Assembly: GCA_026991135.1 (NCBI GenBank)
Contig: JALXCD010000067.1
Location: forward strand, 532-64,531
Direction: 5' to 3'
From: Deltaproteobacteria bacterium
Lineage (GTDB): Bacteria; Desulfobacterota; Dissulfuribacteria; Dissulfuribacterales; QOAL01
Length of the DNA stretch: 64,000 nt
Part shown: positions 1,942 to 61,625 of the stretch, in pieces
Layout of the letters: each line of letters begins with the position of its first letter
Position numbering within the stretch: position 1 is the first letter of the stretch
The notes under the pieces: generated by a model
The model's input: only the letters and a program-made list of their open reading frames with translations
Databases searched by the model: none
What the model was told of the DNA's origin: nothing
Translations under genes and position numbers: made by a program

Positions 1942-3237
1942 TCAGATTGTACTAATTTTTAATGCCTTACCACTGGCAATACCTGTGAAAAGCCAATAAA
2001 GGGATGCTGAAAGATGGACCATTCCATCGGTAAAAAGATTCGTTGTCCAAAACATGATCAAAAAGGTCATTGCAGCAAGAAATAGAACTTTTTCTCTATG
2101 GGTACCGGAAATTCGGTATGCCCTTAAAAAGAGTCTGAATTGAGATATTATTAATAACAGTAAGAATAAAGCACCCTGCACACCAAACTGGAAGGCATAA
2201 TCTATAAATACATTATGGCCATGATATAGCCCTGCCCTTTTTATAAGGTCTTTATGATATATCTTTATTAGTTTTGTTCCTGTACCTTTAGGGATAAAAG
2301 GATTTTTGGCAATCTCCTTTATAAATTCTCTATAGGTAGAAATTCTAAGCGGTATGGAGCCCCCTTCCATTTTGGCTTCTTCTACCTTCCCCTTTAAAAG
2401 AAGATTCCAGTTTTCCCTTACAAAATAGCCCTTTTCCCCAAAGATAAATAATGAAGCCAGCAGGATCAAAAAGGCCCCAAGGGCAAGGGCCAAATATTTT
2501 GCCCTTGCCTTTATAAATAGTGTTGAAAAGCACATGCCTGTCATGATAGCAAGGGCTGCCCCTCTTCTTGTGGTGCTAAAAAGAACAAAAATGTTTAATA
2601 GTAAAAGTGTTAAATAGGGCCATCTCTTTTTTATGTCTGGATAAATCAGGGCAGAAAAAAGGACCGAGATCAAAAACGTGAGAAAAAGGCTTGTGTGTTT
2701 TATCCCGTTATAAAGTTCACAAAGATTTCCATATAGAAAAAAGATACCAAAGGGGTTTTTAACTTGCTGATCTCCGCCAAACATAAAGGGAGAGTCAGGA
2801 AAAAATATCCATTGAAGCATTATTCCAAAATAGAGACCTAGAAAGATCAAATTAATAGGGATTATTACTTCAGGGAATTTGATTTCATTTCCTTTTTTTA
2901 AAAAATAAAATGAAGTGCCTGTGTATAGGAGAATATTTACAAAGAATTCACTAAAGCAGTTTTTCAAGGAAAATACCGGGTCAGGGCTAAAAAAAATTCC
3001 TGATATTGCTGCCAAAAAGATCAAAATGAAAAAGACAAAGGGAGGCCTTGCCAAGATTGCAAGTGCCTCTTTTTTTAAAAAAAGTGAGTGTTCTCTAATT
3101 AGAATTTTAAATGAGATAAGGGCGATTAAAAGAGAAAGTATGTATCTTTCAAGGGGATAGATGTGAAAGGGGATTACTGTCAAATAAAGCGGGATAAGAA
3201 GGGTTAATATGTCCTTTTTTGATTGATTTATTTCCAT
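1942..3237 (-). CDS. O-antigen ligase-like (Wzy_C/WaaL family) polytopic membrane protein
   Basis: 431 aa with about 10 or more hydrophobic helices. A 'STTRRGAALAIMTG' segment resembles the O-antigen ligase signature region. Sits next to a GT4 gene. Confidence 0.6.
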   Translation of the reverse strand: MEINQSKKDILTLLIPLYLTVIPFHIYPLERYILSLLIALISFKILIREHSLFLKKEALAILARPPFVFFILIFLAAISGIFFSPDPVFSLKNCFSEFFVNILLYTGTSFYFLKKGNEIKFPEVIIPINLIFLGLYFGIMLQWIFFPDSPFMFGGDQQVKNPFGIFFLYGNLCELYNGIKHTSLFLTFLISVLFSALIYPDIKKRWPYLTLLLLNIFVLFSTTRRGAALAIMTGMCFSTLFIKARAKYLALALGAFLILLASLFIFGEKGYFVRENWNLLLKGKVEEAKMEGGSIPLRISTYREFIKEIAKNPFIPKGTGTKLIKIYHKDLIKRAGLYHGHNVFIDYAFQFGVQGALFLLLLIISQFRLFLRAYRISGTHREKVLFLAAMTFLIMFWTTNLFTDGMVHLSASLYWLFTGIASGKALKISTI

Positions 3238-4377
3238 TTAAGCGTACAATAAGTCTCTATAAACACTCACGGTCTTTTCAACCATAAGCTCTTTTGAAAA
3301 ATGTCTTTTTACATGCTCTCTGGCAATTTCTCCAACTCTTTTTAGCTCATCTTGGGAAAGGGTTCTAAATTCTAGCATGGCCCTAGAAAGTTCATGGACA
3401 TTTTTGGGGCTTACCATTTTACCTATGCGCTCCTGTCCCCTTTTTTCAAATAGTTTAAAGATATCCTTTATGCCGTCAGCAGATGTCGTTATCACGGGCA
3501 GCTTCGATGCCATTGCCTCTAGAATTGAAACCCCCAGGGCCTCCCTGAATGAGGGATGAACAAAACAGTCAAAGGCTTTCATGGCAAGGGGAACTTCATC
3601 ATATTCAACCCTTCCTGTAAAAAAGACCTTTTGTGAAATTCCAAGTTCATCAGAAAGGACTTTAAGCCCCTTTTCAAGGGGCCCATCACCCACAATGGCA
3701 AGCCTTGTTTTTGGGTATATTCTAGTTACTTCTCGAAAAGCCCTTAAGAGTATGTCATGGCACTTGGCCTTTTTAAGCCGTGCCACAATTCCAAAATAAA
3801 AGCCGTTTTCTGGAATGCCCAGAAACCTTCGGGCCTCCCTTTGGGTAGCCTTAATACAAAATTTTTTAAGGCTTACTCCATTGTGAATAACTATTATCTT
3901 TTTTTCTGGTATAAATTTGGCATTTTCCCTTACATATTCCTTTACGGCATTACTTACACAAATGACCCTCTTAAGATTCTTTTCAATAAGCCTTATGGCA
4001 AGGCGGCGGTTAACCTTCCTGAGGACATTGGTGGCCCTTACGGTATAGATAAGATTGACATCTTTCATCCCAAGGGTTGAAAGTCCACAGTGTACCAGTG
4101 CCCTGTGTCTTTGGCTATGTATTATCTTAAAGCCATGAGACTTTATTATTTGTCTAAGGGCAAGGATTGCCTTAAGGTTGAGACCTCTAAAATCCTTTTT
4201 GCCAAGGCCAAGGCCAAGGGCCTTTATCTTGGGACCTGACATTACGGAATTTTTCGGATCGCCATAGAAATATCCTATGGTGGGCTCAAATCCTGCCGCA
4301 ACCAGGCCATTTAATACATATTTATGTACGTGTTTGTCCTTGCTAGGGTCGTCAAGTAAGTAAAGGATTTTTTTCAT
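3238..4377 (-). CDS. glycosyltransferase family 4 (GT-B)
   Basis: The C-terminal motif 'EALGVSILEAMASKLPVITTSADGIKDI' is typical of the GT4 E-x7-E region. 379 aa. Confidence 0.8.
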   Translation of the reverse strand: MKKILYLLDDPSKDKHVHKYVLNGLVAAGFEPTIGYFYGDPKNSVMSGPKIKALGLGLGKKDFRGLNLKAILALRQIIKSHGFKIIHSQRHRALVHCGLSTLGMKDVNLIYTVRATNVLRKVNRRLAIRLIEKNLKRVICVSNAVKEYVRENAKFIPEKKIIVIHNGVSLKKFCIKATQREARRFLGIPENGFYFGIVARLKKAKCHDILLRAFREVTRIYPKTRLAIVGDGPLEKGLKVLSDELGISQKVFFTGRVEYDEVPLAMKAFDCFVHPSFREALGVSILEAMASKLPVITTSADGIKDIFKLFEKRGQERIGKMVSPKNVHELSRAMLEFRTLSQDELKRVGEIAREHVKRHFSKELMVEKTVSVYRDLLYA

Positions 4378-7880: not shown

Positions 7881-8832
7881 GCCCTAGCTCCCTTTTGTGA
7901 AGTCCCTTTTTAAATAAAAAGGAGCGTATTTCATTGCAAAGGGTACATTTTGAGCCAAATTGCCTTTTTTCATCCATCTTAAGGTCCAAAGAACAGGCAT
8001 ATTCATAAAGCCCTCTAACTCCCTTTTCGGCAAGGATGTTGATAATCGGGTACCTATCCTTGTCAAATGCCTTGCCAAGATCCGTTGCCTTTAGTTTTAT
8101 TCCTGCACAAAGGCCCGGGATATAATTCCCAAAAAGATCAATATGAAAATGACTGGTGTCAAAAAGCTCCATACAGCCCTTTTTATTTCTATTAATCAAT
8201 TCTTTTAAAGGCTTCCCCATATCAAAAAAGTACTTTAGTGCCCTTCCACCCGGGTGAATCCAATATCTTTTGGGAATGTCTCTTATAAAGCCCTTGCCAA
8301 AGATATCTTCCAGATCTTTAAGTGTATAGCGCTTTTCAGGGTCGAGTTTTAAAAACATATTTAGGTATTCCGATGTCCAGGGAAATATTCCCATACCTAC
8401 CTTTTGGCAGGCCGAGATTACTCCAAGGACCTTTTTAAGTGGGATATATTCCACGTGAAACGGGCTTATGGAGACAAGGATTCTTGAAATGCCCTCCTTT
8501 TTAAGGGTCAGAAGATAATCTATTGCCCGATTTTCATCTGTGAACCATGAAGAGTTTGTCTCTATGTATTCAATGTGTATCCCTATCTCTCCCGCGGCAC
8601 TAACTACTTCAAGGAGCCCCTTTTTGTTTAAAAAGGGTTCCCCTCCGCCTATATGCATTGTGTTGCAACCAAGGCCTTTGGCAATTTTAAAGGTCTTAAT
8701 GGCGGTTTCTTTGTCTATATATTGTTTGGGCCAAAAAGGGCTACAGTTATATAGGCAGTGTTTGCATGAAGATGTGCAATAATAGTTGGTAATTAGTCCA
8801 CCAGAAATAAGGCTACTTATGGTAAAGGACAT
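7849..8832 (-). CDS. radical SAM protein, unknown function
   Basis: CxxxCxxC motif 'CTSSCKHC' near the N-terminus and 'GGGEPFL' (SAM-binding GGE). The 3' end overlaps the convergent DUF1992 gene by 32 nt. Confidence 0.75.
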   Translation of the reverse strand: MSFTISSLISGGLITNYYCTSSCKHCLYNCSPFWPKQYIDKETAIKTFKIAKGLGCNTMHIGGGEPFLNKKGLLEVVSAAGEIGIHIEYIETNSSWFTDENRAIDYLLTLKKEGISRILVSISPFHVEYIPLKKVLGVISACQKVGMGIFPWTSEYLNMFLKLDPEKRYTLKDLEDIFGKGFIRDIPKRYWIHPGGRALKYFFDMGKPLKELINRNKKGCMELFDTSHFHIDLFGNYIPGLCAGIKLKATDLGKAFDKDRYPIINILAEKGVRGLYEYACSLDLKMDEKRQFGSKCTLCNEIRSFLFKKGLHKRELGPREYYSGLLN

Positions 8833-11075: not shown

Positions 11076-11871
11076 CAGGAAGAAAATAGGTTACTCCAAT
11101 AAAGGTAAATAAAAGGGCCAAAAATCCAATTATGGTCATATATGCACTTCTTTTGCCACGCCAACCTACAGTGAGCCGTTGGTGCAAAAGCGCAGCATAA
11201 AGGAGCCATGTGATGAGGGACCAGGTTTCCTTTGGATCCCAACTCCAGTAAGCTCCCCAGGCCTTTTCTGCCCAGATGGAACCTGTAATTATTCCAAGGG
11301 TTAAAAAGGGAAACCCTATCTTAAGACATTTTTCAGCCATGGTGTCAAGGGTTTGAAGAGACGGAAGCCTTTTAAAAATTGCTCCGAGACGCTTTTTCTT
11401 TATTTGCCTCTCCTGAATTAGATACATAATAGATATGCAAAAGGACATGGTCAAAAGGGCGTAGGAAATAAGGCTTATGGAGGCATGAATAGGCAACCAG
11501 TAGCTTTGAAGTACAGGTGGAAGAGGTAATATCTTTTTAGGCTGTATAACTGAAAGTACAGTTACGAGGGTGATAATTGGACTAATAAAGGCCCCAAGGG
11601 CTTTAAGTTTGTGTCCCATCTGAAATAGTAAAAAGGCAAGGCATAGTGCCCAAGCCAAAAAGGAAAAGACCTCATGAAAACTGACTATTGGAGGGTGTCC
11701 TGTTGATATCCATCGAAGTAGAATGCTCAAGGTGTGGATAAAAAGACCTGCCAAGAGGAAGTAGGTTGCAAATCTTTCAACATCCTTTCTAAGGGTTATA
11801 AGATTAACCAGAAAACCAGCAGTAGCCAAAATATAGGCTATCAAGGTCAAGTGGAGCAGAAATTCAGTCAT
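11053..11871 (-). CDS. CcsA/HemX-like haem-handling membrane protein
   Basis: Tryptophan-rich motif 'WGAYWSWDPKETWSLITW' (WWD). 8 predicted TM helices. Placed between hemA and sirC. Confidence 0.75.
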   Translation of the reverse strand: MTEFLLHLTLIAYILATAGFLVNLITLRKDVERFATYFLLAGLFIHTLSILLRWISTGHPPIVSFHEVFSFLAWALCLAFLLFQMGHKLKALGAFISPIITLVTVLSVIQPKKILPLPPVLQSYWLPIHASISLISYALLTMSFCISIMYLIQERQIKKKRLGAIFKRLPSLQTLDTMAEKCLKIGFPFLTLGIITGSIWAEKAWGAYWSWDPKETWSLITWLLYAALLHQRLTVGWRGKRSAYMTIIGFLALLFTFIGVTYFLPGAHSYAS

Positions 11872-56458: not shown

Positions 56459-57112
56459 TTAAAGATGGGTTTCAGCTTCTTTTGCCATTTGTTTTAAAAC
56501 TTGGATTACTTCCGGCTTTTCTTTCAATTCAGGATAGTCTTCTAATGTTGTTGCTGCCTTGAGATAAAGATCAAAATCCTGACCAAGAAATTTTTTTCTA
56601 AAACCCCTTCTTGCCATATCAAAATCGTAATGGAATTTTCCCCAGAGAAAGGCAAGATCATACGGGTCTTTCCAAAGAACTCGTCGTCCGCAAGCATATA
56701 TCTTGTTTAAAAAAAGATCATAATCGCTGAAGGTGACAATACCGTAAACATCTTCCGTGTCGTTTATTGGTTTGAAAGGAAACGATATAAATGACACCTT
56801 TATTTCCTGGATGAATACATCGAGATTGTCGGCTCCAGGTTGTTGGATGAAACCTTCGATATCAAAATTCTTTTGTATCTTCCCAAGAATTGAGGTAAAT
56901 GTCCTGTCTTCGTTAAAAAAGAAATCTAAATCTAGGCTTTCCCTATGGTTGTGGCGAAACATGATGGCAGTTCCGCTGCCAAGGACAAAGGAAGGAAAAA
57001 TTCTTTGTATTTCATGTGCCAGGTGAAACAGTTTTTTCTGCCGGGTTTTTGGACACAAGGGATTTTCTCCATTCCTTAACTGCTGCCCTACAACCTCGAA
57101 AGACATCGTCAT
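56459..57112 (-). CDS. AbiEii/AbiGii-type nucleotidyltransferase (type IV TA toxin family)
   Basis: 'LGSGTAIMFRHNHRESLDLDFFF' matches the GGTAL..HR.S.D.DFF NTase signature. 217 aa. Confidence 0.6.
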   Translation of the reverse strand: MTMSFEVVGQQLRNGENPLCPKTRQKKLFHLAHEIQRIFPSFVLGSGTAIMFRHNHRESLDLDFFFNEDRTFTSILGKIQKNFDIEGFIQQPGADNLDVFIQEIKVSFISFPFKPINDTEDVYGIVTFSDYDLFLNKIYACGRRVLWKDPYDLAFLWGKFHYDFDMARRGFRKKFLGQDFDLYLKAATTLEDYPELKEKPEVIQVLKQMAKEAETHL

Positions 57113-57329
57113 AGGTATTAATCACATGGCTGCAGACATCAGGCCAGAGTTCAAATGCAAGTCGAAGAGCCTTGTAGTTTGTTGAGTCACACATAATTCT
57201 ATGAACTAAAACTTCCAGCATGATCTTATTGTCAACGGCATCCCATGCCCATTTTTTTAATTCAGCCGGGACAGAAACTATCTGGGTGAATTTCGGCCTG
57301 ATTCGTTTAACGGTGCCTTTGACGTGCAT
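57012..57329 (-). CDS. hypothetical protein upstream of and overlapping the NTase (possible cognate antitoxin)
   Basis: 105-aa ORF whose last 101 nt overlap the NTase ORF in another frame. No SD seen. No family recognised. Confidence 0.35.
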   Translation of the reverse strand: MHVKGTVKRIRPKFTQIVSVPAELKKWAWDAVDNKIMLEVLVHRIMCDSTNYKALRLAFELWPDVCSHVINTYDDVFRGCRAAVKEWRKSLVSKNPAEKTVSPGT

Positions 57330-57413
57330 AACTTATTTTAACACGTTATGATGTCTCTGAAAAAGTAATTATTCTTTAGAGAAAAAGGGAGTCTAGGCTT
57401 TTATCGTCCTCTG

Positions 57414-57456
57414 GGGAAGGAACTTTGAAGGGTTCATTTTTATATGCCTCCAGCAT
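57414..57456 (-). repeat. decayed duplicate of the WYL-stop/DUF2779-start junction
   Basis: 57433-57456 (TTCATTTTTATATGCCTCCAGCAT) equals 60567-60591 apart from one missing C. Similarity is weaker on the flanks. On the minus strand it reads ..EMLEAYKN and ATG-AAC-CCT-TCA-AAG (MNPSK..), against ..EKMLEAYEK* and MNLSK.. in the intact copy. Confidence 0.7.
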
Positions 57457-57728
57457 CTCTTACGGATTGCAGACCTGGTTCCTTAAAAAACATGAACTTG
57501 CTCGCATTAGTCCAAAAGCTTAAGGATCGACTCTGGCATCAATGGGCCTTACACACTCTGGCGAGTAATTGGTGGGCTGTTTACCAAAAGGCTAACCGGC
57601 CAGGCGGTCATCTTGTCTGAAGGTATGGGGCCAAGAAGTGCAACAAGTTCCCTGTCTGGCGTCTTTCTTAAAAGCCATTTTTCATAGCAAGATTTTTTAA
57701 GGGATAACTGGCATATCTTTCCTGTTTT

Positions 57729-58001
57729 TCAGTATCTGGATAATTTTTTGTAAATATCCCGCCTGTGGCCAACCTTTACAATCCAGACAACAAGCTTCCT
57801 ATCCTTTATTGAGTATATTATTCGATAATTGCCTTGACGGATTCTGTATCTTTCTTGCCCTGAGAGCTTTTCACATCCAGGTGGCCGAGGATCATTTGCA
57901 AGGGATTTGATCCGCTTGATGATCTTCTTTAAATCCTTATCAGGGATCTTGTCCAGGTCCTTAAGAACGGATTTCTTTAAAAATATTTTATAGGCGGCCA
58001 T
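57729..58001 (-). CDS. RelE/ParE family type II toxin
   Basis: 'YRIRQGNYRIIYSIKDRKLVVWIVKVGHRRDIY' is the typical RelE/ParE core. 90 aa. Confidence 0.85.
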   Translation of the reverse strand: MAAYKIFLKKSVLKDLDKIPDKDLKKIIKRIKSLANDPRPPGCEKLSGQERYRIRQGNYRIIYSIKDRKLVVWIVKVGHRRDIYKKLSRY

Positions 58002-58221
58002 GCCGTTTAAGCTCTTTTAACACATCCTCAAAGGCAATTAGGGGTTCGTCTGCCCTTTCTTCAAATGCAGCCAAGTCTTCTGCATCTTCTGCAAGGCTTA
58101 GACGTATGGCCTCGTTAATAAGCTCTGACATGGACCGTGATGTGGCAGCTGCCTTTATTTTTAAGGCCCTGTGAATATCAGGATCCAGATATACTGTGGC
58201 CCTTTTGCTAAGCTGTGCCAT
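57988..58221 (-). CDS. ribbon-helix-helix antitoxin
   Basis: 'KRATVYLDPDIHRALKIKAAATSRSMSELINEAIRLSL' is an RHH fold pattern. It overlaps the toxin start by 14 nt. Strong SD AGGAGGTG. Confidence 0.8.
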   Translation of the reverse strand: MAQLSKRATVYLDPDIHRALKIKAAATSRSMSELINEAIRLSLAEDAEDLAAFEERADEPLIAFEDVLKELKRHGRL

Positions 58222-58307
58222 ATTGTCACCTCCTGGTATTAAAGCAGTATAACATCAAAATGTTTTTGTGACTATAGGTTGGTTAGATGAGGATGTATTT
58301 TTTTCTT

Positions 58308-58323
58308 TGCCAGCATTTACCAG
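58308..58323. promoter_or_regulatory. candidate operator upstream of the parA remnant (TGCCAGCATTTACCAG)
   Basis: Nearly the same two-hexamer unit as the first two iterons of the downstream array (TGCCAGCATATTGCCAG at 58996-59012). Confidence 0.45.
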
Positions 58324-58346
58324 AAAAGCACGAGAAGGGGCACGAA

Positions 58347-58739
58347 ATGCTAGTAATTGCCATAGCCAATCAGAAGGGAGGAGTCGGAAAGACCGCAACC
58401 ACCTTTAATCTTGCTCATGCCATTTCAAGGGCTGGGAAAAAGGTCCTCATGGTTGACCTTGATCCCCAGGGGTCGCTTACTGACTATGCGGGCTTTATTC
58501 CTTCAGAGCAGGATGACACCATCTATGAGGTGCTTCACGGCCAAAAATCCATTCTCGACGTCATACTTAAAGAAGAAGGGGAGGGCGCAGGCGACATTAA
58601 GGTCTTTTCTCCCATTATCTACACAGTAAGAATACAGGAATCCCCTGTGGCAAAGCAGGCTATATTTGATTACGCCCCAGAGACCGAGGCAGGAAAAAGA
58701 TTCTTGGAGCTTGGAAGGGAGGTAATAGATGAGTGCTAA
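58347..58739 (+). pseudogene. parA: ParA/Soj-type partition ATPase with a large in-frame internal deletion (probably non-functional)
   Basis: Deviant Walker A 'NQKGGVGKTATT' and A' 'VLMVDLDPQGS' are present. The ORF is only about 130 aa. It jumps to a ParA C-terminal-like end ('ESPVAKQAIFDYAPETEAGKRFLELGREV') with no Walker B region. Confidence 0.6.
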
Positions 58740-58995
58740 AAGGGTTTCCATGAAGGGGGCAAAGGGTCTTTTAGGCGGAATAGCCCCTAGGGACAAAAAG
58801 ACATCATCTGAAGAGGCAGTTAAAACTGCTCAAACTGTGACAAAGACCAAAAAGAAAGACATAAAATGGCGAAAGGCCACAATAAGGTTTGAAGAGGGTT
58901 TCTTTCTAAAAATTAAGGATAAGCTAGCAAGGGAAGGCCGCACCCTTCAGGGATACATTGAGTACTTGATAAGACGGGATATGGAAAAGGACTGA
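58729..58995 (+). CDS. ribbon-helix-helix protein, ParG-like putative centromere-binding protein
   Basis: A Lys-rich flexible N-tail is followed by 'RKATIRFEEGFFLKIKDKLAREGRTLQGYIEYLIRRDM' (beta-alpha-alpha pattern). The start overlaps the parA stop. Confidence 0.6.
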   Translation: MSAKRVSMKGAKGLLGGIAPRDKKTSSEEAVKTAQTVTKTKKKDIKWRKATIRFEEGFFLKIKDKLAREGRTLQGYIEYLIRRDMEKD

Positions 58996-59086
58996 TGCCA
59001 GCATATTGCCAGTAAAAGCTGGTAAATACTGGCAATATACTGGCAATTACCAGCAATATTACAGTAAATGCTGGCATTCGCTGGCA
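58996..59086. repeat. phased iteron array (putative parC/parS-like centromere): 9 hexamers CTGGCA/TGCCAG and variants at 10-11 bp spacing
   Basis: Hexamer starts: 58996 and 59007 (TGCCAG), 59019 (CTGGTA), 59029 and 59040 (CTGGCA), 59050 (CCAGCA), 59061 (ACAGTA), 59071 and 59081 (CTGGCA). The array fills the whole convergent intergenic gap. Confidence 0.7.
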
Positions 59087-59095
59087 CATAAAGAA

Positions 59096-60571
59096 TCAAA
59101 GGCCGGCGACTTTACACAGAAATTCATAAAGCCTTAAAAGGGCCAGGGTATCCAGGCGGCAGTATTCTAGAAGTGCATTCCTTATTTTTTCCCTCTCCTC
59201 CCTGTCTTTTATCAGGTGAAGTGTGGCAAAGGTGTCCATGGCCATTCCCCCATTTCTGATTTCAAGTCCATTGTAATCAAGGGTTTTGTCATCTGGGAAA
59301 ATGGCAGGCAGGACAGACTTTAGCGAAAGGCTGCCGTTAAATTCCGGGTGGTAGTAGCCCCCGTTCCTAAATGGCTCCATAAGGTCCTCAAATCTTTCTA
59401 GAAGGGAGAGAAGCTCATTTTTGCGAAGAGGGTCATAATCTGCAAGCCCTTTTATTATCCCTTCTTCAAAGCCCTTGTTAAAGGCCACAATGCTCCCTTG
59501 GGGCCTTATGTCCTTTAGCATATGTGAAATGACATGATTTCTAGGGTCCTCGTTTTCATCTGCCAGAAACTCCCTGTGTTCAAGGTTTCCGTCTTCGTAA
59601 AGTATGTGGAGGGAGTATTGAAAGGGTATATGCATGTAGGGCCTTTGTCCGTCAAACCTTGGGATTGGCTCATTGAAGGTTTCAAAGTCAAAAAAGTGTA
59701 TGGGATAGGAAAGGCGAGAAAGAAACTGCCTTATCTTTTTCCTGTCAACATGGACGGAACCCGTCTTTTCGGTCTCTATCTGAAGTGCCTGTATGGCATT
59801 GGGCCTAAAGTCTTCCGGGATGTCTGAGATTTTAAGAATGCCTTCCTGGTAAAGCTCAAATTTCTTAGCCTGAGTTAGGCGGTAAAGATTAAAAATAGAG
59901 CGCTCGGGCACATTGCGCCAGCACCATGACATATAGTCGCAATCATAAAAATTAAAACAGTGGGGACCAATATCCACTTGGGGCATATCGCCTTTAAGCA
60001 TCGTAGAAAATTTTTGTCTGTAATCCTCAATTTCTCCCTGCTTGGACACCACCTCATGGGTTACGTCCTTAATGGCAAAAAGCCCCTTGATGTCTAGCTC
60101 TCCCTTGCGGACGTAGCTGTTGTCTATATGAATGATGAAGGCCCTTTTTATCCTAAGGCCAAAGTTTGAAAAAGCCCTATATTGAAAGGCAACATCAAGA
60201 ATGTGATAGTCCTTTACGGACGTAGAGGCCTTTACCTCATATATTTCCCAGCCATCCCCGTCTCTTTTGAGGATGTCTGCCATTGCAAAGTCTCCCCTTG
60301 CGCTTACCGTGGCTTCATAAATCGTATCCACTCCGGCATCAAGCCACTTCCTGGTCTGGCTGATCATGCCTTTAAAGTTTTCAGGGTCAAAGGCCACCTC
60401 TTTTCCGCCAGGAAAAAGCCTTTTAGCCAGATCTCCCACCATGCGTCCAGATTCAAATCTGGCCTCTTGCCCCTGGTCCGGCTCATCCCTTGGAATGTCG
60501 CTATTTTTGTAGAGCCAAAGGGATTTTGCGCACTTGACTCCCCTTACAAAAAGGGACTTAGAAAGATTCAT
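59096..60571 (-). CDS. DUF2779 protein: N-terminal Cas4/RecB-like PD-(D/E)xK nuclease with Cys cluster, plus a C-terminal DEDD-like exonuclease
   Basis: 'MNLSKSLFVRGVKCAKSLW' is a DUF2779-type N-terminus. Also 'DGWEIYEVKAS', 'HCFNFYDCDYMSWC', 'FFDFETF' and 'YCRLDTLAL'. Confidence 0.7.
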   Translation of the reverse strand: MNLSKSLFVRGVKCAKSLWLYKNSDIPRDEPDQGQEARFESGRMVGDLAKRLFPGGKEVAFDPENFKGMISQTRKWLDAGVDTIYEATVSARGDFAMADILKRDGDGWEIYEVKASTSVKDYHILDVAFQYRAFSNFGLRIKRAFIIHIDNSYVRKGELDIKGLFAIKDVTHEVVSKQGEIEDYRQKFSTMLKGDMPQVDIGPHCFNFYDCDYMSWCWRNVPERSIFNLYRLTQAKKFELYQEGILKISDIPEDFRPNAIQALQIETEKTGSVHVDRKKIRQFLSRLSYPIHFFDFETFNEPIPRFDGQRPYMHIPFQYSLHILYEDGNLEHREFLADENEDPRNHVISHMLKDIRPQGSIVAFNKGFEEGIIKGLADYDPLRKNELLSLLERFEDLMEPFRNGGYYHPEFNGSLSLKSVLPAIFPDDKTLDYNGLEIRNGGMAMDTFATLHLIKDREEREKIRNALLEYCRLDTLALLRLYEFLCKVAGL

Positions 60572-61566
60572 TTTTCATATGCCTCCAGCATTTTTTCCAA
60601 GGCATGCCTAATTTCTTCTCTTAGGCCTTCTGGCTCTAGGAGCTTTGCCTCTGGCCCATAGGTCATCACCCACCTTTTTATGTCGTACCAGCCAGAGGTG
60701 ACCATCTCGAGTATGATGGAGCCGTCGGGCTTTTCAGTAATCTTCTGCTTTCTTGCCCATTTGCGCTCCCTTATGTAGCGGGCCTGATCCCTTGAAAACC
60801 AGATCTTTACGGTGAACTCCTCGTCGTAGATGATGCCAAAGGTGGTATTAAGGAACTTTTCTGGGTCAAAGTCCTCGGGATACTCAAAGGTCTCGTCTGT
60901 TATCTTTAGATCCTTTATTCGCTCAACGGCCAGAATCCGTATCTCATCAAATCGACAGATATTAACAAAGCAATATAGCCCACCGTTGTTTTCAAAAAAA
61001 TAAAGGGGAGCGATCCTGAAATTCTTGATCTTGTCGTCTGAAAAGGCATGGTAGGTTACTAGACAGACCTTGCCCTTGAGTATGGAGCTACAAAGGTCCT
61101 CTATCACCTGCTGCTTGTCAGAATAGTCCTTGTTGAACTTAGAAGGCGCAACAAAGAGAGAGCGCACCTTTTCAAGCTGGGGAAAAAGCCCGGAAGGGAC
61201 AAACATCTCTATCTTTTTGAAGGCGGAATCTATCCTCTTTTCTATGTCTGTTCCTCTAAAGGCCGCCTCTCCCTTTTTAAGGAGATAAAGAGAGATGATC
61301 TCGGAAAGTGAAAAACGCACATCCGGTATGGTAAGATTTGGAAGTCTTTTTTGAAACTCATCAATAAAAAACCACCTCTTTTTTCTTCCAAGGGGCTCCT
61401 TTTCATTTGTCAGTGGAAAGCCCAGCTCCTCTATGGTGTTTAGAAGCCGATAGACAGACCTTTTGTCTATCTCCAGGCGTTCTGAAAGCTCGTTGACCGT
61501 TGCCCCGGAGGGCCTACTCAAAAGATCTATGGCCCTTAGAAGTTTTATAAGGTTTGCGCCCCTCAT
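60568..61566 (-). CDS. WYL-domain transcriptional regulator (wHTH-WYL-WCX architecture)
   Basis: wHTH 'LLRAIDLLSRPSGATVNELSERLEIDKRSVYRLLNTIEELGFPL'. WYL-like core 'VCLVTYHAFSDDKIKNFRIAPLYFFENNGGLYCFV'. The ORF is open to a GTG at 61623; I prefer the ATG at 61566. The stop overlaps the DUF2779 ATG (ATGA). Confidence 0.8.
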   Translation of the reverse strand: MRGANLIKLLRAIDLLSRPSGATVNELSERLEIDKRSVYRLLNTIEELGFPLTNEKEPLGRKKRWFFIDEFQKRLPNLTIPDVRFSLSEIISLYLLKKGEAAFRGTDIEKRIDSAFKKIEMFVPSGLFPQLEKVRSLFVAPSKFNKDYSDKQQVIEDLCSSILKGKVCLVTYHAFSDDKIKNFRIAPLYFFENNGGLYCFVNICRFDEIRILAVERIKDLKITDETFEYPEDFDPEKFLNTTFGIIYDEEFTVKIWFSRDQARYIRERKWARKQKITEKPDGSIILEMVTSGWYDIKRWVMTYGPEAKLLEPEGLREEIRHALEKMLEAYEK

Positions 61567-61604
61567 TTTCCCTTTCTTAAAATTTTCTGAAATTTTTTTT
61601 AAAA

Positions 61605-61625
61605 GTGTGACCAGTTTCGTCACAC
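61605..61625. promoter_or_regulatory. perfect inverted repeat GTGTGAC-N7-GTCACAC in the divergent control region (candidate WYL operator)
   Basis: The 7-bp arms are exact reverse complements. Located between the WYL start (61566) and the ClpP-like start (61695). Confidence 0.5.

Follow-up and report, generated by a model that had tools for sequence, protein, structure and literature searches.

The window analysed here, a stretch of 64,000 nucleotides, holds between positions 58,222 and 59,095 what looks like a DNA partition locus with an ATPase gene of about half the usual length. This raises the question of whether the locus is a working partition cassette, the leftover of a plasmid or integrative element, or a resident gene pair that has lately decayed. 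A reading of the sequence alone had seen in it a crippled type Ib-like cassette. Intact relatives support that reading, since the deleted ParA, the probable ribbon-helix-helix (RHH) partner, the phased repeat array and the operator copy all have their counterparts there. We conclude that the locus is most probably (at a probability of about 0.82) a type Ib-like DNA partition cassette that resides on the chromosome and, in this copy, was recently inactivated.

The parA remnant occupies positions 58347–58739 of the plus strand (130 codons and a stop, within an open reading frame spanning 58287–58739), the ATG at 58347 being its likely start. As had been claimed for it, the 130-aa product retains both the Walker A motif (KGGVGKT, residues 10–16) and the A′ motif (DLDPQ). 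The deviant form of Walker A and the lack of an N-terminal extension are as expected of a type Ib ATPase; the ATPase core, which also belongs to that type, is incomplete in the window copy, where Walker B is missing. Pfam AAA_31 accordingly covers the remnant at model positions 3–79 of 177 only. Alignment to orthologues with an intact 253-aa ParA, which are 82–85% identical to the remnant, left a single 123-residue gap, and the proposed in-frame join with loss of the Walker B region was thereby upheld: residues ~82–204 of the 253-aa ancestor have been lost in frame, Walker B (FILLD, residues 121–125) among them. The ends of the 369-bp deletion lie at two copies of a 10-bp direct repeat, GGAGGGCGCA. 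This repeat is present twice in intact parA genes at a spacing of exactly 369 bp (1263–1272 and 1632–1641 in the intact locus L005; a repeat search detected the pair in both L005 and L018), and a single copy remains at the deletion junction in the window (58580–58589, plus strand). Slippage or recombination between the two copies took these 369 bp out of parA and left the frame open. Judged by this junction, the deletion is a microhomology-mediated, in-frame event of the kind seen in ordinary gene decay. Lacking Walker B and some half of its fold, the ATPase of the window copy cannot work and, on its sequence, this parA copy is a relic and not a working partition member.

Overlapping the end of parA by 11 nt, and preceded by a GGGAGG Shine-Dalgarno sequence, lies a gene for an 88-aa protein (58729–58995, plus strand), hereafter the partner, which is the candidate centromere-binding protein and repressor. 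It comprises an N-terminal basic-aliphatic peptide, MSAKRVSMKGAKGLLG, a Lys-rich disordered linker (the N-terminal half has 12 Lys in 49 residues) and a C-terminal domain. Searches of Pfam, NCBIfam and PADLOC returned nothing at threshold for the partner, and neither ParG nor a ParB/Srx or HTH domain was matched in Pfam. The N-terminal peptide had no match in the PDB, a profile of the partner (A2) run against the PDB gave acyl carrier protein noise only, and a full-length AF2 model was uninformative (pLDDT 65, a single long helix). The C-terminal 44 residues were modelled, as a monomer, with an extended-helix-helix (strand-helix-helix) order at pLDDT 87, and the top four Foldseek matches of this domain model (TM 0.63–0.78, E>1) were Arc, the PutA DNA-binding domain, DinJ and RelB, all of them RHH folds. 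A wider profile (A3) run against the PDB placed TP228 ParG at the top, over the RHH domain, with a sub-threshold E of 0.007, and MatP second; the matched stretch of MatP is RHH as well. When the partner family was compared with ParG by hhalign, a probability of 50% was obtained at 21% identity. Residues ~46–88 are thus a probable RHH domain. Of the translationally coupled, ParG-like RHH protein proposed at the outset, the length and an overlap with parA, of 11 nt, were confirmed; the likeness to ParG is remote, and the fold is probable but not proven. By analogy, the partner may be ParG-like in its working while lying outside the ParG sequence family, and an apparent resemblance of its N-terminal peptide to the ParB N-terminal motif is a lead from the literature.

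Directly after the partner gene comes a centromere-like array (58996–59086) of nine 8-bp boxes, TRCYRGYA, separated by A/T-rich spacers of 2–3 bp. The boxes start at 58996, 59007, 59017, 59027, 59038, 59048, 59059, 59069 and 59079, at spacings of 11, 10, 10, 11, 10, 11, 10 and 10 bp (mean period 10.4 bp). Eight of the nine are within one mismatch of TRCYRGYA, whereas none of 200 shuffles had more than 6 in 100 bp (mean 3.9); the box at 59059 is degenerate. Of the 46 exact copies of CTGGCA/TGCCAG in the whole window, six fall in the 100-bp gap at 58996–59095, and TRF reported a period-11 array at 59026–59059. Over 54 boxes from six loci, the weight matrix was T78 R91 C89 Y98 R98 G98 Y96 A91 (in %) and the spacing was 10 or 11 bp throughout. 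The array is kept in register directly after the partner stop codon in L001, L003, L005, L009, L010 and L013, and the boxes of the window equal those of intact loci in quality. It had earlier been described as nine hexamers with at most one mismatch, the first two inverted relative to the rest. The array itself stands, but CCAGCA (59050) and ACAGTA (59061), read in the orientation given for them, depart from CTGGCA at two and four positions, and an 8-bp pseudo-palindrome describes the repeat unit better than hexamer iterons do. The inversion had to be given up: the central dinucleotide of the box switches orientation between orthologous boxes, so that the direction of the first two has no conserved meaning. 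The boxes form a repeat cluster beside the operon and are putative binding sites of the partner protein.

The same boxes are found upstream of parA at all intact loci. What had been taken for a promoter copy of the first repeat pair (TGCCAGCATTTACCAG, 58308–58323) is real, but it is the proximal part left over from a larger operator, half of which has been lost. This remnant (58308–58325) consists of the boxes TGCCAGCA (58308–58315) and TACCAGAA (58318–58325), 10 bp apart, at a position conserved in L001, L003, L005, L006 and L009, and another box, TGCTAGTA (58348–58355), overlaps the parA start codon. At intact loci, a distal operator follows the pattern of two boxes, CTGGCAAYATGCCRG, with an AT-rich core, TTTGCTGTAATAATGATGTAATA. 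The window copy has neither these distal boxes nor the AT-rich core of the promoter, the expected distal half (58222–58307) being absent or degenerate. Homology by blastn to all intact loci starts at 58307, and a MAFFT alignment (A4) showed a 10-bp gap and just weak similarity upstream of that position. The segment 58222–58307 also acts as promoter region for a divergent ParE/RHH toxin-antitoxin operon, with a minus-strand sigma-70-like site at 58274–58246. By scan, no plus-strand sigma-70-like site was detected upstream of parA in the window or in L005, and since the scan is silent even in this intact locus it is unable to prove promoter loss; the probable loss in the window rests on the alignment and on an extended -10-like element, TGTAATAAT, read by eye.

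Could the ~130-aa protein be a member of a genuine, conserved family of short ParA-like proteins and no deletion product at all? Its frame is open with Walker A and A′ unbroken, and other short ParA-like proteins of 148–164 aa exist in the database (P0009, P0015 and P0043), but these have different, unrelated breakpoints and are just 33–37% identical. The junction is otherwise found solely in P0001, a 99%-identical strain variant, and its ends coincide with the repeat GGAGGGCGCA. All eight listed cluster representatives at ≥59% identity to the full-length query are 251–264 aa long, and members of the subfamily without a visible deletion, IS insertion or truncation all measure 250–264 aa. A conserved short family is thus extremely unlikely, and as far as sequence data go it is already refuted. 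An assembly or binning artefact might also be suspected behind the internal deletion, the source of the window being evidently a metagenome-assembled genome; contig L017, retrieved by exact sequence look-up of its proteins, derives from an ENA metagenome assembly. We give this hardly any credence, as the identical junction was assembled independently from a different sample (contig L012, ERZ23491340, encoding P0001; 99.9% identical to the window over 872 bp) and a 10-bp repeat is too short to cause an assembly to collapse. The array, for its part, might belong elsewhere, as sites of a WYL regulator, as replication iterons or as a terminator region between convergent genes: it abuts the 3′ end of a convergent DUF2779 gene (stop at 59096) and, in L005, the last boxes coincide in part with a terminator-like hairpin. 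Yet the array accompanies the partner gene at loci that have no DUF2779/WYL (L001–L004), the boxes recur upstream of parA and, in L021, inside the partner gene itself, and replication genes are absent nearby, all of which makes such an assignment very improbable.

We therefore return to the reading of a recently inactivated, resident cassette, and to its relatives. The search of related genomes and plasmids advised by the sequence-only reading yielded intact loci, with a 253-aa ParA at the identity of 82–85% given above, and no plasmid homologues: PLSDB, INPHARED and IMG/VR contain none of the partner protein. Out of billions of proteins, the partner family makes up about a dozen clusters, and one locus was found in GTDB species representatives and three in JGI metagenomes. 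In every lineage still having parA the partner gene lies downstream of it, mostly overlapping its end, and this order holds in 33–36%-identical relatives too; among the distant relatives, L021 adjoins an integrase and L014 a T4SS coupling protein. Among solved structures, the intact ParA is best matched by Soj/ParA proteins (Thermus Soj, E=6e-47), to whose structures the 253-aa orthologues align from residue 3, with 42–46% identity to Soj. These loci appear to constitute an undescribed, very rare type Ib-like par family that pairs a Soj-like ATPase with a probable RHH protein.

Derivation from a plasmid or ICE had been proposed for the locus; it is plausible at most in the remote past. The codon composition of the cassette matches the host, its dS (~0.6–0.7) is about equal to that of its flanks, and the remnant and partner gene have an omega of 0.06–0.15 compared with 0.13–0.16 for flanking genes; between the window and L013, the partner gene differs by 9 synonymous and 3 non-synonymous changes (omega 0.08). 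The cassette thus co-diverged with its flanks under purifying selection, which makes the deletion recent, and in the window lineage it is a chromosomal resident of long standing. Such retention over a dS of ~0.6 would be unexpected for a mere plasmid relic. The window also contains what we take to be gatB, mreB, hemL and atpB (translations read by eye), and its cassette is chromosomal and not borne by a plasmid or other extrachromosomal element. An argument for foreign origin from GC content was withdrawn: in L001 and L005 the GC content of the cassette seemed high for the contig, but the low contig GC reflects AT-rich toxin-antitoxin inserts, and the GC3 of single genes matches that of residents in every genome.

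Loss of parA has occurred repeatedly. Independent disruptions were found in at least three other lineages, by IS insertion (L006/L007), 5′ replacement (L019) and complete loss (L011), several of the examples being short, low-coverage metagenome contigs that are possibly chimeric; circularity of L019 was not supported. The notion that the DNA-binding half persists after the ATPase has decayed fits the window, where partner gene and array are intact, but it is no rule. The partner gene and array might then be a working module in their own right after loss of ParA, and persist for that reason in a toxin-antitoxin/defence island whose neighbouring genes are AbiEii, ParE/RHH and a DUF2779-WYL pair. 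Possible roles would be those of a stand-alone repressor, a nucleoid-organising site or a decoy centromere on the chromosome, exerting partition incompatibility against incoming relatives. In keeping with this, the 88-aa frame is unbroken, with an omega of 0.08 against L013, the array boxes match those of intact loci in quality, and L019 has kept the partner gene in full, L011 for the most part, despite the loss of parA. However, the L013 contig starts 6 nt before the junction position, so that the low omega may predate the deletion. The ancestral promoter region is gone from the window and a plus-strand promoter was not detected, a further deletion of ~270 bp in the sister contig L012 (99.9% identical) has removed most of the partner gene, and the native start of the partner gene has been lost in L011. 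In addition, parA is three times longer and so a larger mutational target. We judge a self-sufficient module unlikely; partner gene and array are still intact most likely because the deletion is recent, rather than because they are separately needed.

For the intact cassette we infer the following mode of action. A 253-aa Soj-like Walker ATPase would be bound to the nucleoid as an ATP dimer, while a small dimeric RHH protein would coat the array of 8-bp pseudo-palindromic boxes, whose spacing of one helical turn would set the dimers on one face of the DNA. The flexible N-terminal basic-aliphatic peptide of the partner would stimulate the ATPase, and the partner would also bind the boxes that flank and overlap the promoter, thereby repressing the operon. 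A bolder proposal, which we consider rather doubtful, is that the intact cassette, far from being a plasmid leftover, serves as a ParA-RHH positioning module of the chromosome, inherited vertically and kept by selection, and so is the bacterial equivalent of archaeal SegAB. Its partner would then join a ParA-activating peptide like that of ParB to an RHH domain like that of ParG, and the boxes could lie even within the coding sequence of its own disordered linker, as in L021. If this were true, the window would be a natural knock-out of a positioning module, and its RHH gene and array might act as a regulator or an incompatibility decoy. In itself, the window is a case of textbook gene decay that leaves the understanding of partition systems unchanged. 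Its value lies in the way it opens into an undescribed, rare par family with a Soj-like ATPase, a probable RHH protein and 8-bp boxes at helical-turn spacing, a family retained on chromosomes under purifying selection and yet repeatedly lost, whose intact and broken natural alleles offer a comparison for testing the role of a chromosomal type Ib-like system.

Among known systems, the chromosomal ParABS system (Soj-Spo0J-parS) shares the type of ATPase, the cassette ATPase being closest to Soj, but the 88-aa partner is without a ParB/Srx or HTH domain and its sites are not parS; parS-like sites elsewhere in the window have 2–3 mismatches and occur at a frequency compatible with chance. Sulfolobus SegAB likewise unites a chromosomal Soj-like ParA with a small RHH protein, which binds DNA at specific sites and stimulates the ATPase through its unstructured N-terminus; these sites lie at and upstream of the ATPase start codon. 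It differs in being archaeal, in the extra helices of SegB and in having two 23-bp imperfect palindromes in place of a phased array, and sequence similarity to the cassette was not found. In the type II ParR-parC systems of R1 and pSK41, an RHH protein also binds tandem repeats with a 10–11-bp period, its dimers following the helical repeat; there, however, the motor is the actin-like ParM and not a Walker ATPase, and ParR contacts it through its C-terminus, as opposed to the N-terminal peptide predicted to do so here. The par2 locus of pB171 (parC1-parA-parB-parC2) has the same layout, in which a two-gene Walker-ATPase operon stands between an upstream repeat cluster (promoter/operator) and a downstream one, but is plasmid-borne and has no detectable sequence relationship to the cassette. 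A further parallel is offered by ParF-ParG-parH of TP228, a plasmid system of type Ib. ParG, as reviewed, is a small partner whose disordered N-terminal tail activates the ATPase and whose C-terminal part is an RHH domain, as is predicted for the partner here; it binds short boxes in either orientation with A/T-rich spacers and is also the repressor of its operon. The similarity of the partner to ParG is only remote (the 21% identity and 50% hhalign probability given above, outside the Pfam ParG family), and where TP228 has a ParF-like ATPase and 4-bp boxes, the present cassette has a Soj-like ATPase of 253 aa and 8-bp pseudo-palindromes with a 10.4-bp period. In contrast to the TP228 system, it is chromosomal, with its main array downstream of the operon.

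In order to define the damage to the partition-like cassette at 58287-59095, the ParA remnant was aligned with its intact relatives. The remnant is encoded on the plus strand, with a sensible start at ATG 58347 that gives 130 aa, and keeps KGGVGKT and DLDPQ; it matched the Pfam ParA-type model AAA_31 at positions 3-79 of 177 only, and scored far under every cut-off in the NCBIfam scan. On the contigs of relatives of the adjacent 88-aa partner protein, a 253-aa ParA is encoded directly upstream of, and overlapping, the partner gene. Alignment with three intact 253-aa ParAs showed 82-85% identity, with one 123-residue gap as the difference, through which Walker B (FILLD, residues 121-125 of intact ParA) and roughly half of the fold are lost. 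In intact parA genes GGAGGGCGCA occurs in two copies, at a distance of exactly 369 bp (1263-1272 and 1632-1641 in L005); a repeat search recovered this pair unaided in L005 and also in L018, and one copy is left in the window, at 58580-58589. Such a pattern is characteristic of slippage or recombination between short direct repeats, here by chance in frame. Assembly error was ruled out because L012, a contig from a different sample that is 99.9% identical to the window over 872 bp, carries the identical deletion junction.

The sequence-only reading of a truncated ParA with Walker B deleted was thus borne out by the single gap and its repeat-flanked junction. Had ParA-like proteins of about 130 aa been a conserved, full-length family, the truncation would have been only apparent. 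This reading was refuted: a database search with full-length ParA retrieved a distinct subfamily at 91, 71, 70, 69, 65, 65, 64 and 59% identity, all 251-264 aa long, below which identity falls to 50% or less, the level of ordinary Soj-like proteins. Other short ParA-like database proteins were few, with breakpoints differing from that of the window and 33-37% identity. Several Soj-like proteins of 148-164 aa (such as P0009, P0015 and P0043), each without the Walker B region, may be real deletion alleles or gene-model artefacts.

The partner ORF (58729-58995, plus strand) starts with an ATG 11 nt ahead of the stop codon of the remnant, preceded by GGGAGG. Its product had no match in Pfam, NCBIfam or PADLOC and belongs to a very small family: of 5.8 billion clustered proteins only eight were related to it, HMMER run over all 1.84 billion representatives returned four family members, and homologues were absent from PLSDB, INPHARED and IMG/VR. 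A ParA gene precedes every family member, even at 33-36% identity, except where parA has been lost. Members consist of a conserved N-terminal peptide (MSAKRxSMKGAKGLLG), a low-complexity linker that varies between them and about 44 conserved C-terminal residues, KWRKATIRFEEGFFLKIKDKLAREGRTLQGYIEYLIRRD. Searched against all PDB sequences, a ten-member profile matched TP228 ParG best (E=0.007), aligned across its RHH domain, and MatP second, over a stretch that we take to be its RHH domain; hhalign of the family with ParG gave 50% probability, and weak sub-threshold Pfam matches to RHH_4, RHH_10 and Omega_Repress occurred among members. The full-length monomer model was poor. The 44-residue domain was modelled with a pLDDT of 87 as an extended segment then two helices, and its four best Foldseek matches were Arc, the PutA DNA-binding domain, DinJ and RelB (TM 0.63-0.78, with E-values above 1 to be read against the very small domain size), all of which have RHH folds. 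Profile and model together make an RHH fold probable for the C-terminal part. The proposed ParG-like RHH protein is thus probable by fold and best PDB match, but lies outside the ParG sequence family.

The 100-bp gap after the partner gene, which runs up to the stop codon of a convergent gene (491 aa), holds six of the 46 exact CTGGCA/TGCCAG copies in the window and a period-11 array detected by TRF. An 8-bp box, TRCYRGYA, describes the repeat unit better; written in IUPAC code, this box equals its own reverse complement. It has 18 exact matches in the window, six of them in 58996-59076 and two more at 58308 and 58348. The nine array boxes start 11, 10, 10, 11, 10, 11, 10 and 10 bp apart, and eight differ from the consensus at no more than one position, against a maximum of six per 100 bp in shuffled sequence. 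Nine phased hexamers had been claimed: the array and its phasing of about one turn hold, but the hexamers at 59050 and 59061 carry more than one mismatch in the orientation assigned. The array lies in the same place, directly 3' of the stop codon, in L001, L003, L005, L009, L010 and L013, always with 10- or 11-bp spacing, and 54 boxes pooled from six loci (the window, L001, L003, L005, L009 and L010) gave position weights of T78 R91 C89 Y98 R98 G98 Y96 A91 %, then A/T. Because the central dinucleotide varies among CA, TG and CG from one orthologous box to another, orientation is not a conserved property, and the inversion of the first two repeats carries no functional weight. One pseudo-palindromic box per helical turn would suit one two-fold-symmetric RHH dimer each, and by this inferred geometry all dimers would sit on one DNA face.

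Some relatives carry unusual arrays. L021 (JGI Ga0374083_1150360) has TRCYRGYA boxes at 3210-3268, upstream, and at 4081-4138, inside the partner gene (TACCAGCA CGCCAGCA AACTGGCA TACCAGCA TGCCAGTA GACCAGCA), and none in an array after the partner stop codon. The in-gene array encodes the disordered linker IPARQQKTGKYQQYASNDQQN, and the part of the partner gene that codes for this linker thus doubles as a set of predicted binding sites for the partner itself; L022 and L023 show a weaker version. In L005 and L018 a PIN toxin-antitoxin module lies within the downstream array, flanked by direct duplications of the array of 70 nt (L005:2090-2159 and 2948-3017, 89% identical) and 41 nt (L018:10310-10350 and 11146-11186, 100% identical); the array of L009 is uninterrupted. 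Toxin-antitoxin cassettes seem to insert or recombine preferentially at these centromere-like repeats.

In the intact loci the operator lies upstream of parA, with all features in 10-11-bp phase: a pair of strong boxes (CTGGCAAYATGCCRG) spaced by 11 bp, an AT-rich segment (TTTGCTGTAATAATGATGTAATA) with an extended -10-like TGTAATAAT by eye, a third box and a box over the parA start codon. In the more distant L022 the region reads, by eye, TTGATT-16-TATAAT, and a box overlaps its -10 element. The window keeps the proximal boxes only (58308, 58318 and 58348); its homology to every other locus starts at 58307, upstream of which the alignment shows a gap and merely weak similarity. The promoter copy noted earlier is thus present, but as a remnant of a larger operator. 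A promoter scan detected no plus-strand site upstream of parA in the window. Loss of the ancestral par promoter is likely, short of proof because the identical scan also misses the promoter of L005. The divergent ParE/RHH toxin-antitoxin operon now also makes use of the former operator stretch; a promoter-like site of this pair, 58274..58246, occupies former par operator space.

The window is chromosomal, and from reading translations we take its genes to include gatB, mtnA, mreB, hemL and atpB. The cassette lies in an accessory stretch, with two toxin-antitoxin-like pairs directly upstream on the minus strand (AbiEii with an overlapping 105-aa ORF, 56459-57329; ParE with an RHH antitoxin, 57729-58221) and, convergent with it, genes for the 491-aa DUF2779 protein and a WYL/WCX/HTH regulator, overlapping by 4 nt (59096-61623, minus). 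The DUF2779 protein has an N-terminal Cas4-like nuclease region and an RNase H-like C-terminus; this pair, 84% identical at the DNA level in L005 and identical in L017, may form a regulated unit for defence or repair. The 400 bp at 57330-57728 hold no convincing gene and, around 57417-57461, a 25-nt copy (88% identical; EMLEAYKNE in minus-strand translation) of the WYL gene 3' end (60572-60596), and appear to be what is left of another WYL gene or of a rearrangement. Two parS-like sites with two mismatches each (TATTCCACGTGAAACG and TGTGCCAGGTGAAACA, 8447-8462 and 57015-57030) were also seen; the five matches with up to three mismatches in the window are compatible with chance (4 of 100 shuffles reached this count).

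An extrachromosomal or integrative origin had been suggested. L005 carries an intact cassette at the orthologous site, next to DUF2779, WYL and NfeD genes with 84% DNA identity to those of the window. Between the two, the three flanking genes had a dS of 0.59-0.68 and the N-terminal part of parA one of 0.69, with omega 0.06-0.16 throughout; the cassette was therefore inherited with the chromosome, under purifying selection since the lineages split. A GC-rich cassette relative to its host was considered and withdrawn, as per-gene GC3 equals that of resident genes in both genomes. A mobile origin is plausible only at greater depth: in L021 a 64%-identical ParA and partner adjoin a tyrosine integrase (1946-2836), and a VirD4/TraG-like coupling protein lies 1 kb away in the distant relative L014.

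The deletion in the window is too recent for raised omega, and box quality is undiminished. The partner gene gave an omega of 0.08 against L013, which may or may not carry the parA deletion. Three further independent parA disruptions were found, several on short contigs: an IS3-type insertion after codon 66 (L006:5001-5527, L007:178-704) in a second cassette copy of a 'Deltaproteobacteria bacterium' MAG that also holds an intact copy; replacement of the first ~580 bp (L019:3691-4147); and complete loss of parA, up to the third partner codon (L011:2960-3217, compared with L016). Together with a second deletion in L012, these disruptions indicate that the cassette is dispensable in some backgrounds, and also that a partner gene and array surviving in the window are no sign of a separate function. 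The DNA-binding half and its sites do persist in the window, as had been proposed, but in the sister L012 this second deletion, of ~270 bp (L012:860-955, window 58685-58956 missing), removed the last part of the remnant together with about 76 of the 88 partner codons.

On sequence grounds, we would file the cassette as an inactivated copy of a type Ib-like partition system, which upholds the original observation and, with these corrections, its reading; the family is of more interest than this copy. The type Ib plan comprises a small Walker ATPase, an RHH partner and repeats doubling as centromere and operator, and the intact cassette likewise combines, by function and layout, such an ATPase, a partner of probable RHH fold with a putative activating tail, and repeats predicted to fill both roles. 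It is not plasmid-borne, its partner falls outside the sequence family of TP228 ParG, and the window copy lacks the complete ATPase of a type Ib system. A ParA-binding, ATPase-stimulating motif has been described in ParB, ParG and SegB; the N-terminal partner peptide, which alone had no PDB match, resembles it in character, as a lead only. The cassette further shares its two-site layout with pB171 par2 and its one-turn repeat period with type II ParR-parC; like archaeal SegAB, it combines a Soj-like ATPase and a chromosomally encoded partner, here of probable RHH fold.
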